A DNA stretch of 32,000 nucleotides. Source: an uncultured archaeon. Lineage in GTDB: Archaea; Asgardarchaeota; Thorarchaeia; Thorarchaeales; Thorarchaeaceae. Below, piece after piece: positions 7,772 to 10,476 of this stretch; position 1 is the first letter of the stretch; each line of letters begins with the position of its first letter. The stretch is taken from the NCBI GenBank assembly GCA_964648855.1, contig CAZYLT010000007.1, forward strand, positions 1 to 32,000, read 5' to 3'. The position numbers and the translations under genes were made by a program. The notes below the pieces were generated by a model. It had not been told where the DNA came from and did not search any database. It saw only the letters and a list, made by a program, of their open reading frames with translations.

Positions 7772-8551
7772 CTATTCAATAATCAATATCGCGTCAACAA
7801 AAAGCTCATATTCCTCATCCTCATCAAGATTCAGAATTAGTGCCTTTTCCACTTCTTCTTCTCCGCGGACTTCAAGAAGCCTTGACTCATAAAGCACTTT
7901 AACTGCCGAGTTACGGAGTTCTTGTTTCAATTCATCGGTCGTAACGATTCGTGATTCTGGAGTCAATAGAACCACCCTGTCAGTTACATCTGTCAGCTCA
8001 AGTGCAGCTTCAACTGATTCATCTCCAGTGTGCAATACCAAGGTTCGCTTGTTTTCAAATTGGCTTCTATCCATCCACGACAGGTACACACCTTTGTCCA
8101 GAAATTCATCTTTGCCCACAACACATTCGGGTTCCTCCTCTTTCTGCTTCTCTTCCATTACCACTGCCTCGCCTTTACCCATCTTGTAGTTCTTGATAGC
8201 CTCATGAAGTGCTTCGGTGGCCAGATTTGAGCAGTGCATCTTGATTGGTGGCAGCCCGTCAAGTTCGTCAGCCACATCCGCGCGAGTGAGTTCCAAGGCT
8301 TCGTCTATCGTCATGCCTTTGACCATCTCTGTAGCCATGCTTGTGGTTGCTATGGCTGAACCACAGCCAAATGTTCTGAATCTTGCATCCTTTATCACAT
8401 CGTCCTCAACCTCTAGGAATATCTCCATGATATCCCCACATGTGGGATTTCCCACTTTCCCGCGGACGACATTATCGCCTTCAAGCGTACCAACATTTCT
8501 TGGATTTCTAAAATGGTCGAGAACCTTTTCTGAATATTCTGTTGATTTCAT
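7772..8551 (-). CDS. iscU: IscU/NifU-N Fe-S scaffold fused to a degenerate thioredoxin-reductase-like NADPH domain
   Basis: aa 1-125 carry NPRNVG, NPTCGD, FGCGS and LPPIKMHC (C38, C63, C107). aa 144-259 follow the TrxR central domain. Confidence 0.9.
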   Translation of the reverse strand: MKSTEYSEKVLDHFRNPRNVGTLEGDNVVRGKVGNPTCGDIMEIFLEVEDDVIKDARFRTFGCGSAIATTSMATEMVKGMTIDEALELTRADVADELDGLPPIKMHCSNLATEALHEAIKNYKMGKGEAVVMEEKQKEEEPECVVGKDEFLDKGVYLSWMDRSQFENKRTLVLHTGDESVEAALELTDVTDRVVLLTPESRIVTTDELKQELRNSAVKVLYESRLLEVRGEEEVEKALILNLDEDEEYELFVDAILIIE

Positions 8552-9750
8552 CTACTCATCACCTTCTCTTTCGGAGTGTAAATTGGAGATAGCTCACGTA
8601 GTCGGGATACGACTTTAGGGACCGCATCTATCACCCTATCTATGTCGCTGTCAGTATTGAATCGTCCCACGGTAATCTCAAGAGAGCCGTGCGCCTCTTC
8701 ATGAAGTAATCCTGTAGCAATAAGACAATGCGAGGGTTCAAGGGTCTTAGAAGTGCACGCAGACCCTGTAGAGATAGCAATGTCCAGGTCTTTGAATGAT
8801 AGCAATATCGATTCTCCCTCAATCCCGTCAAACCTGAAGTGAGCGTTGTTTGCCAGTCGTTCCTCAGGATGACCATTAAGATAGCTGTCAGGTACTTCAT
8901 TCAGCACAGTATCGATGATTCGGTCACGATACTTCTTAAATCGCCCTATTTCATCATTCATTTCTTCCTGCATAATCTCGGCTGCTGCGGCCATCCCGAC
9001 GATGGATGGCACATCTTCGCTTCCTGACCTCAGTCCCCTCTCTTGACCTCCTCCAATTATGAGCGGATTTACTCTGTAACCTCTCCGCATGAAGAGAAGA
9101 CCTGCTCCCTTAGGACCATAGATGTCATTTGAAGACATAGACATCAGGTCGATATTATCTGTTTCAACATTAATCGGAACTAGTCCTTCGGCTGCAACTG
9201 CGTCCGTATGTAGTGCAGCACCATGGTCATGAACAATCTCTCCAATCTCTCGTATCTTTTGAATAGTCCCAATCTCATTGTTTGCATATTGTATGGAAAC
9301 CAGAATCGTGTCACCCCGGAGTCTGCTCTCAAGTTTTCCAAGTTTTACCTGCCCGTATTGGTCGACAGGAACTCTGGAAACCATGAAACCTTCTCTTTCA
9401 AGATATTTTGCTATATTTCTGATAGAAATATGTTCCACTTCTGAGATGACTATGTGTTTTCCCTTTCTTTTGTTCCTTAAGGCATAACCAACGATGCCTA
9501 AATTGATAGATTCCGTCGCGCCGGAGGTATAGACTATTTCATCCATCTTGGCTCCGATGAACTCAGCCACTTTCTTTCTGCTCTGTTCTAATGCTTCAGT
9601 TGCTACATCACCGACATGGTGTAGAGAAGATGGGTTACCAAATCTCTCAGAGAAGTATGGACTCATCTGCTCCATTACTCGCTCATCAACGGGCTTAGCA
9701 GATTGGTAGTCGAGGTATATCTGTTCGTCGAATGTGCTACTCATCCTCAT
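8548..9750 (-). CDS. iscS: group I cysteine desulfurase homologue (IscS/NifS), Lys-to-Asp variant
   Basis: YLDY, GNPSS, TSGATES, NNEIG, GGGQERGLRSG and TGSACTS (C332). The PLP motif reads SSNDIYGPKG rather than SxHKxxGPKG. Confidence 0.92.
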   Translation of the reverse strand: MRMSSTFDEQIYLDYQSAKPVDERVMEQMSPYFSERFGNPSSLHHVGDVATEALEQSRKKVAEFIGAKMDEIVYTSGATESINLGIVGYALRNKRKGKHIVISEVEHISIRNIAKYLEREGFMVSRVPVDQYGQVKLGKLESRLRGDTILVSIQYANNEIGTIQKIREIGEIVHDHGAALHTDAVAAEGLVPINVETDNIDLMSMSSNDIYGPKGAGLLFMRRGYRVNPLIIGGGQERGLRSGSEDVPSIVGMAAAAEIMQEEMNDEIGRFKKYRDRIIDTVLNEVPDSYLNGHPEERLANNAHFRFDGIEGESILLSFKDLDIAISTGSACTSKTLEPSHCLIATGLLHEEAHGSLEITVGRFNTDSDIDRVIDAVPKVVSRLRELSPIYTPKEKVMSR

Positions 9751-9992
9751 TCGCTCTTTTTCTTTATTAGAAAGACTTGAACTCCATCTCCAAGTTTATC
9801 ATAACTAAGGAGCTCATGCCCCGTCCGCTTGCAGAATCTCTCAAGATCCGATTTTGCTGCGGGGTCGTCTGAAAGAACTTGCAGAACCTGACCTGGTTCC
9901 AACTCATCAATTGCTTTCCGCGTTTGAAATAAGGGTTGTGGACAGTACAGACCGATACAATCCAGCTCGCTATCTACTTCTTCTGAGTTCAT
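9747..9992 (-). CDS. tusA: TusA/SirA-family sulfur carrier
   Basis: LDCIGLYCPQP (CPxP) and SDDP...D motifs. Start placed at MNSEEVD; 4-bp overlap with iscS. Confidence 0.92.
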   Translation of the reverse strand: MNSEEVDSELDCIGLYCPQPLFQTRKAIDELEPGQVLQVLSDDPAAKSDLERFCKRTGHELLSYDKLGDGVQVFLIKKKSE

Positions 9993-10071
9993 CTCCAAAT
10001 ATACACCTTTCTCAATACACAATAGTTAATTATTGACTTATAATTCTATTCGTAGGAAAAAATCTGCTCCT

Positions 10072-10476
10072 CTATTGGTCACGATCCTGCACAAGCTCAT
10101 CTTGCATTATTCTACATCTGTCCAGCCATACTCTTTGGTATGTGATGTGGTCAACGACTCTATCTTGGAGATCCGGTATTGATTCAATTCCGTTAGACTT
10201 GCACCACTCGACGCAGATTCTATATGCCTTCCAGTCGAGATTCATGGTTTCCACTTCGACTGGAACTCTTTCAAATCCATTGAGATGCCACGCAAGCCCC
10301 CGAGTATGCCCATCTGTTGATACCAGTTCCCCATCCAACCTCTTGATGGGTATTGGTTCCAATTCATGTTCTCTACCTTCTTCAAAGAAATTCAGAACAA
10401 GGTCGAGTTTCTTTTTTGATATATAGAGCTGACTCGGCTGAATCTTATGGAGTTCTAGTGGTGAGGGAATGTCCAT
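10072..10476 (-). CDS. ParB/sulfiredoxin-like N-terminal domain protein
   Basis: IQPSQ...PIPI...DGHTR pattern of the ParB/Srx fold. Confidence 0.65.
   Translation of the reverse strand: MDIPSPLELHKIQPSQLYISKKKLDLVLNFFEEGREHELEPIPIKRLDGELVSTDGHTRGLAWHLNGFERVPVEVETMNLDWKAYRICVEWCKSNGIESIPDLQDRVVDHITYQRVWLDRCRIMQDELVQDRDQ

Follow-up and report, generated by a model that had tools for sequence, protein, structure and literature searches.

An operon joining tusA to a lysine-less iscS and iscU in a Thorarchaeaceae genome, and a putative sulfur-carrier link to archaeal IscS-IscU

IscS2 of Archaeoglobus fulgidus, the closest described relative of the protein treated here, has no cysteine desulfurase activity, binds pyridoxamine 5'-phosphate (PMP) and is thought to provide one cysteine ligand for the IscU-bound [2Fe-2S] cluster (PMC8918507, PMC7585200). 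IscS1 of Methanosarcina acetivorans also lacks the lysine for pyridoxal 5'-phosphate (PLP) (PMC7585200). For the A. fulgidus pair, sulfide has been suggested to supply the sulfur (PMC8918507). How this pair builds iron-sulfur (Fe-S) clusters without a desulfurase is an acknowledged open question (PMC8918507), as are the electron donors of the minimal archaeal (MIS) systems (PMC13066941). Here, we describe a tusA-iscS-iscU operon in a 32,000-nucleotide stretch of DNA (positions 1 to 32,000 of contig CAZYLT010000007.1, below "the window") of an uncultured archaeon of the Thorarchaeaceae; the window corresponds to contig C7 of a 3.1-Mb genome, 94.6% complete. Its IscS is of the Asp-type, i.e. with an aspartate at the position of the PLP lysine. 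The best explanation of the operon, held by us at a probability of about 55%, is that the carrier TusA feeds sulfur to the lysine-less IscS-IscU. The operon and the parts of its last gene are as follows:

9747-9992, minus strand: tusA, sulfur-carrier protein of 81 aa, Pfam TusA
8548-9750, minus strand: iscS, Asp-type (lysine-less), 400 aa, Aminotran_5, relative of A. fulgidus IscS2
7772-8551, minus strand: iscU fusion gene, 259 aa, NifU_N
8168-8551, minus strand: IscU scaffold domain (residues 1-128), NifU_N, with ligands C38, D40, C63, H106 and C107
8126-8167, minus strand: acidic, disordered IscU linker (residues 129-142), with low predicted local distance difference test (pLDDT) values, unconserved
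7772-8125, minus strand: IscU C-terminal domain (residues 143-259), apparently a stripped-down NADPH domain left over from a thioredoxin-reductase-like flavoprotein

The tusA stop and the iscS start overlap in the ATGA at 9750-9747, the iscS stop and the iscU start in the ATGA at 8551-8548. Both overlaps, from which an earlier note on this DNA had read the three genes as one unit, are present in the window sequence, and tusA-iscS-iscU is a single translationally coupled operon. Four-base overlaps are frequent in operons and weak evidence taken alone; the gene order, however, is found again in dozens of lineages, a recurrence not accounted for by chance. The open reading frame (ORF) of tusA spans 9747-10022. 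Translation from the ATG at 9992 yields 81 aa, the length found in homologues, which begin near this ATG; the TTG at 10022 is an alternative start.

A scan for the pattern S-N-D-x-Y-G-P-K-G, with one genome per species, recovered at least 120 loci, and all counts of Asp-type loci given in the following are among the matches listed. The archaeal loci belong to Bathyarchaeia, Thermoplasmatota, Hadarchaeota, Methanoperedens, Methanosarcinales, Methanocellales, Asgard lineages and Nitrososphaerota, the bacterial ones to several phyla, e.g. Thermodesulfobacteriota, Aminicenantes and WOR-3. The loci were searched using profiles built iteratively from the proteins of the window, and upstream genes were counted at loci with at least 900 nt of upstream sequence. 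A co-oriented tusA lies upstream of the Asp-type iscS at 76 of the 94 loci, tusA or dsrE at 81 and both at 48, while iscU follows downstream at 83 of 102. At Lys-type Asgard iscS loci, tusA or dsrE was found upstream in none of 30 (about 870 nt upstream each), and the expected association of tusA with Asp-type rather than Lys-type iscS is thus borne out (81/94, counting tusA and/or dsrE, vs. 0/30 Asgard Lys-type loci). Of 400 Asgard genomes, 141 carry the Lys-type motif, but in the family to which the window belongs it is present in only three of 85 genomes.

In its usual form, the cassette includes dsrE as well, a gene overlooked in the first reading of the window. Two close relatives of the window have the order tusA-dsrE-iscS-iscU (259 aa), and the same four genes are arranged in this way in Archaeoglobus neptunius (L170); tusA without dsrE is the commoner form in Bathyarchaeia. 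In A. fulgidus DSM 4304 (AE000782.1; L169:4650-6616), a complete DsrE frame stops 10 nt short of the crystallised IscS2. In this genome, the dsrE gene call of 94 aa looks 5'-shortened, with the profile alignment running upstream of its ATG, and no TusA frame was found within 1.2 kb upstream of dsrE. By gene order and sequence, these loci represent a widespread cassette, tusA-(dsrE)-iscS(Asp)-iscU(-reductase part), of anaerobic archaea and some bacteria, with the window as a dsrE-less member. Two Atabeyarchaeia loci (L071:3874-7569 and L098:2942-6592) possess tusA-dsrE-iscS(Asp) followed by a lysine-bearing SufS-like class-V gene, not by iscU. This neighbour carries the motif IHKMCGPSG and a cysteine in RSGMFC, i.e. 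a presumably active desulfurase adjoins a "dead" one.

The IscS(Asp)-IscU core of the cassette is already known. A literature search, with the original A. fulgidus papers outside its coverage, found neither a published link of IscS(Asp)-IscU to TusA or DsrE nor a published IscU-reductase fusion. The suggestion of an undescribed system in the earlier note is accordingly narrowed to the carrier link, the core being of the known A. fulgidus type.

The window IscS matches Pfam PF00266 (Aminotran_5) over residues 11-373 (E 1.3e-69). The solved structures closest to it are those of A. fulgidus IscS2 (4eb5/4eb7/4hvk, E 2.3e-140); residues 11-391 align with 4eb5_A, with an IscS/NifS-like type I class-V aminotransferase fold over the full length. 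Asp209 (GAC, 9126-9124) occupies the site of the PLP Schiff-base lysine and matches D199 of 4eb5, the motif SSNDIYGPKG is identical in both proteins, and the engineered D199K variant 4r5f reads SSNK. The loop cysteine is kept as Cys332 in GSACTS (codon 8757-8755). This alignment with the same SSND shows that the K-to-D change, already proposed in the earlier note, is genuine, and it places the window IscS in the described A. fulgidus IscS2 type. All NCBIfam equivalog cut-offs lie above its scores.

Asp-type sequences (99) were compared with 29 Lys-type sequences, the latter from Asgard archaea only. Four positions distinguish the Asp-type, S109 (Ala in Lys-type), A186 (Gln), N208 (His) and D209 (Lys); of these, N208 and D209 are fixed by the search pattern, and S109 and A186 lie outside it. 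S109 occurs in 99/99 and A186 in 89/99 Asp-type sequences, and all 29 Lys-type sequences hold A and Q at these sites and K at the site of D209. H107, D183 and Cys332 are invariant in both sets (99/99 in the Asp-type), and the PLP-contact residues T79, H107, D183, S206 and R241 are without exception among the 99. A quick, unrooted maximum-likelihood tree separates the 99 Asp-type from the 29 Lys-type sequences by a single split with a Shimodaira-Hasegawa-like approximate likelihood ratio (SH-aLRT) of 100. Judged from these alignments, the Asp-type IscS is a coherent subfamily under selection and not a decaying gene.

The conserved pocket bears on a different role, that of an enzyme with altered, non-covalent PLP/PMP chemistry on a non-cysteine substrate, for which TusA/DsrE would be acceptors or substrate carriers. 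The four signature residues were switched and then held, the five contact residues stay invariant in all 99 sequences, and A. fulgidus IscS crystallises with PMP, or with PLP when in complex (PMC8918507). This role appears quite improbable to us, given the missing cysteine desulfurase activity of A. fulgidus IscS and the binding of PMP by its D199K variant as well (PMC8918507), the lack of any known alternative substrate, and the dependence of two signature residues, N208 and D209, on the search pattern. A second class-V aminotransferase paralogue without the PLP lysine is encoded on contig C4 of the same genome (L003:1444-2655). It has SSNR where S-x-H-K is expected, keeps a cysteine near its C-terminus, and has no tusA or iscU neighbour within the 4-kb locus.

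The window TusA scores 86.8 bits against Pfam PF01206 (cut-off 28.6). The cysteine of its CPxP motif is Cys17 (codon 9944-9942), and all of 50 operon-linked TusA sequences share C17, P18, P20 and D42-D43-P44. Its profile recovers E. coli TusA (1dcj/3lvj) with E 2.4e-19, and against the E. coli equivalog NF001423 the window protein reaches 64.1 bits, below the cut-off of 78. The protein is therefore classed by its profile scores as a TusA-family member, with E. coli orthology not established by the equivalog score. A second TusA of the same genome, on contig C14 (L164:1498-2707), is 37% identical to the window TusA; this copy and a DsrE paralogue point apart across the gene of a 135-aa membrane protein.

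Structure prediction for a complex of the IscS dimer with TusA gave a score of 0.39, compared with 0.00 for the best of three controls. Prediction runs share at least 70% of contacts, with a pLDDT of 81 or more for the partner. The mark applied is passed by 58 of 80 solved complexes and by two of 110 mismatched pairs, and passing scores of 0.60 or below comprise just seven of the 80 solved complexes plus both passing mismatches. The prediction lends weak support to an IscS-TusA pairing, and its pass may reflect likeness only, because the IscS-TusA complex of E. coli (3lvj) is already solved.

Among solved structures, the operon TusA is closest to that of E. coli, where sulfur is handed from IscS via TusA to a DsrE-family complex (PMC13066941). 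Following this precedent, IscS(Asp)-IscU, with Cys332 charged by other means, might donate to TusA (and DsrE) for tRNA thiolation, molybdenum cofactor (Moco) and other thio-cofactors. A DsrEFH-like triple on contig C16 of the window's genome and some Thermoplasmatota cassettes with carriers and no adjacent iscU are in line with this direction. We regard it as unlikely: no persulfide synthesis of its own is known for an IscS without the PLP lysine (PMC8918507), the iscU downstream at 83/102 loci and the reductase fused or adjacent in some of them point to cluster assembly as the end point, and no tusE or mnmA-like gene was seen in the cassettes examined.

The iscU gene of the window encodes a NifU_N domain (Pfam E 1.9e-47; NCBIfam TIGR03419 192.1 vs. 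a cut-off of 187.9), whose ligands C38, D40, C63, H106 and C107 show no variation in alignment A1 and which matches 4eb5_C and 7c8m in Foldseek (E about 5e-16). The AlphaFold2 model of the whole protein (mean pLDDT 84) consists of two confident domains and a linker, the latter with pLDDT below 50 at residues 129-140 and unconserved in A1. Cys143, in the linker region, was considered as a functional residue and rejected, being unconserved outside Thorarchaeota. Homologues of this 259-aa protein are named Thorarchaeota and Sifarchaeia.

The C-terminal tail of IscU has a sub-threshold Pfam Pyr_redox match (residues 175-234), matches 2zbw in phmmer (E 2.3e-10) and 2zbw_B in Foldseek (E 4.7e-12), and its model (pLDDT about 90) superimposes on 7jyp with a root mean square deviation of 1.7 over 119 columns (Foldseek). 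Its closest sequence is the NADPH domain of a Methanoperedens IscU::Pyr_redox_2 fusion (34% identity, E 1e-18), with HTGDES in the window where the fusion has GGGDSA and TPESRI where it has HRRDEL. In A1, the Asgard and bacterial copies have eleven residues of the tail in common without exception. No GxGxxG and no CxxC occur in the 259 aa of the window IscU, and the flavin adenine dinucleotide (FAD) part is gone. Of the thioredoxin-reductase (TrxR)-like protein in the fusion that had been proposed, the window IscU thus has the central domain only. Measured by its motifs, the tail has nothing of a thioredoxin reductase except the NADPH-domain fold and is no reductase by itself.

Complete fusions are present in Methanoperedens-type genomes (L077:4494-5828; L033, L105, L028), where IscU and a complete TrxR-like flavoprotein make up 443-444 aa and sit in dsrE-iscS(Asp) operons. 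The 444-aa fusion of L077 combines NifU_N with a complete Pyr_redox_2 including both GxGxxG and no CxxC. At two further loci, L081 and L096 (one of Methanocellales, one of an unclassified archaeon), a separate flavoprotein gene of 311-313 aa directly follows iscU. The complete IscU-flavoprotein fusion is a candidate for a built-in electron donor of Fe-S assembly, and from sequence similarity such fusions are the likely origin of the window tail. The short IscU fusion occurs at 19 of 92 Asp-type loci, and all 15 complete IscU ORFs at Lys-type loci are unfused (122-133 aa). In this comparison with Lys-type Asgard loci, the fusion is confined to Asp-type operons, in agreement with the co-occurrence that had been anticipated.

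The IscS proteins of the short-fusion operons form one clade (SH-aLRT 100), in which Asgard sequences are mixed with those of Thermodesulfobacteriota, Aminicenantes and WOR-3 (L044, L046, L051, L085, L090, L103, L131); this mixture suggests a transfer of the whole cassette between domains. A 111-112 aa gene after iscU in Archaeoglobus was considered as a free-standing IscU tail and rejected (tail-profile E 0.066); it looks helix-turn-helix-like by eye. In Sifarchaeum (L126:1584-3170), the IscU beside the Asp-type iscS is 528 aa long, with an intein containing a LAGLIDADG endonuclease interrupting NifU_N.

The window has the order tusA-iscS(Asp)-iscU, co-oriented and with no dsrE between tusA and iscS. 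The operon-type dsrE (at least 71% identical to the copy of L009) is present in about 49 of the 85 genomes of the window's family, and absent from the window's genome and its genus (0/2 genomes) as well as from another genus of the family (three genomes, 96-99% complete). Besides the DsrEFH-like triple on contig C16, the window's genome has only the DsrE paralogue beside the second TusA on contig C14, which is 36% identical to the operon type. This distribution indicates that the three-gene form is a derived variant, whose lineage lost dsrE.

The dispensability of dsrE in the window's lineage would also suit a regulatory or protective link, with TusA/DsrE acting as a buffer for reactive sulfur or as modulators of the complex, not as its sulfur donors, and with sulfide going straight into the cluster. 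For A. fulgidus, free sulfide has been put forward as the source (PMC8918507), and in E. coli TusA competes with IscU for binding to IscS (PMC11302665). The translational coupling of tusA to iscS, its tie to the Asp-type across phyla, and the invariant CPxP cysteine of TusA, which argues for sulfur chemistry, leave this link a very slim chance.

The window's genome encodes a SufS-like protein with HK motif and catalytic cysteine on contig C2, and one SufB-type (SMS) scaffold. In each of five further genomes with an Asp-type IscS, a gene for a lysine-bearing IscS or SufS-like protein is also present. The cysteine-independent route suggested in the earlier note is therefore rejected as an unproven claim at the level of the genome. 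Also rejected are the LarE-like, RdhA, radical SAM and IlvD neighbours, which had been cited as possible Fe-S clients: they are not syntenic in, and are absent from, the neighbourhoods of relatives, which retain the alcohol dehydrogenase (ADH) and M24 peptidase neighbours of the operon. No chaperone, ferredoxin or A-type carrier was found among the Pfam-scanned ORFs between 4013 and 13117. A 134-aa ORF (10072-10476, minus strand) precedes tusA and stops some 80 nt before its ATG; neither Pfam nor NCBIfam gave a match to this ORF, and relatives carry a different gene at that position.

Several observations weigh against a sulfur feed from TusA into IscS-IscU. At 13 of the 94 Asp-type loci neither carrier lies upstream, and several Thermoplasmatota loci possess the carriers without an adjacent iscU. 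The control set comprises Asgard loci only, with short flanks of about 870 nt, Asp-type loci supplied the sequences on which the profiles for TusA and DsrE were iterated, and related genomes are non-independent samples. The window's own genus is devoid of the operon-type dsrE. We infer the direction and the source of the sulfur transfer, and sequence cannot tell whether TusA gives to IscS; sulfur in E. coli flows in the opposite direction, from IscS to TusA and on to the DsrE-like TusBCD. The four pocket changes could signal a new cofactor-dependent activity instead of a pure scaffold. Finally, cysteine may still be the ultimate source, because a lysine-bearing desulfurase coexists with the Asp-type IscS in six of the six genomes examined.

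Under the preferred reading, in which TusA supplies the lysine-less IscS-IscU, TusA (with DsrE in most lineages) would be a dedicated persulfide carrier. It would load sulfane sulfur onto Cys332 of IscS and/or onto IscU and so replace the lost desulfurase step; candidates for the primary donor are polysulfide, sulfide-derived sulfur or the lysine-bearing SufS-like enzyme of the same genome. A complete flavoprotein, as in the Methanoperedens fusion or the Methanocellales neighbour, plausibly gives NAD(P)H electrons that reduce persulfide sulfur to sulfide. The window tail, presumably descended from such a TrxR-type, CxxC-less flavoprotein, is the shell of a nucleotide domain that cannot bind FAD and probably not NADPH, and is therefore most likely a docking or structural module. 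More tentatively, and at somewhat under even odds, the lysine-less IscS-IscU might be the core of a distinct Fe-S route widespread in anaerobes, with TusA/DsrE replacing the desulfurase reaction by charging the loop cysteine of a pseudo-enzyme and, in some lineages, a TrxR-type flavoprotein, fused to IscU or encoded beside it, taking the place that ferredoxin has in ISC as electron source. Such a route would identify the components for sulfur trafficking and electron donation that are still missing from the minimal archaeal system.

The subtype-specific, lineage-spanning link to TusA/DsrE, along with the TrxR-like flavoprotein of some lineages, names candidate partners that are testable with proteins of already solved structure. 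Should sulfur be relayed in the proposed way, this would be a further feed into Fe-S assembly, present in Asgard archaea, Bathyarchaeia, methane-cycling archaea and several anaerobic bacteria.

Compared with known systems, the window is closest to the IscS2-IscU pair of A. fulgidus (the AF0564 pair; 4EB5, 4EB7, 4HVK; variant 4R5F), with which it shares the IscS subtype, SSNDIYGPKG, the loop cysteine, the adjacent iscU and the fold of the IscU domain. The iscS of A. fulgidus has dsrE directly upstream, whereas that of the window is preceded by tusA with a four-base overlap, and the window IscU possesses a 117-residue remnant of a reductase domain that the 153-aa A. fulgidus IscU lacks. With TrxR-type ferredoxin/flavodoxin-NADP+ reductase-like proteins (2ZBW), the IscU tail shares the fold and order of the NADPH domain, but in contrast to them it has no FAD domain, GxGxxG or HRR-type site. 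The E. coli relay IscS-TusA-TusBCD (3LVJ) comprises the same families, i.e. IscS, a CPxP TusA and DsrE-family proteins, the last of these found in the window's relatives; E. coli IscS, however, is an active desulfurase and the donor, its relay genes do not form one operon with iscU, and the relay ends in tRNA thiolation and Moco. DsrE3A-TusA of Metallosphaera cuprina is likewise a pairing with TusA, and the cassette DsrE of the window's relatives has its nearest solved structure in 3mc3, the Saccharolobus homologue (E 7.3e-10). The DsrE3A-TusA carriers serve dissimilatory sulfur oxidation beside shdr genes (PMC11094781), whereas the cassette carriers flank Fe-S assembly genes, in the window without dsrE. 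The MIS system (MisS/MisU; PMC13066941) has a two-gene core of IscS-like and IscU-like proteins without hscAB, fdx and iscA, and the window is alike in gene content and, as in MIS hosts, comes from an anaerobic archaeon with a SufB-type (SMS) scaffold in addition. The reviewed MIS possesses a cysteine desulfurase and no carrier, whereas the desulfurase homologue of the window is lysine-less and has a sulfur carrier attached.

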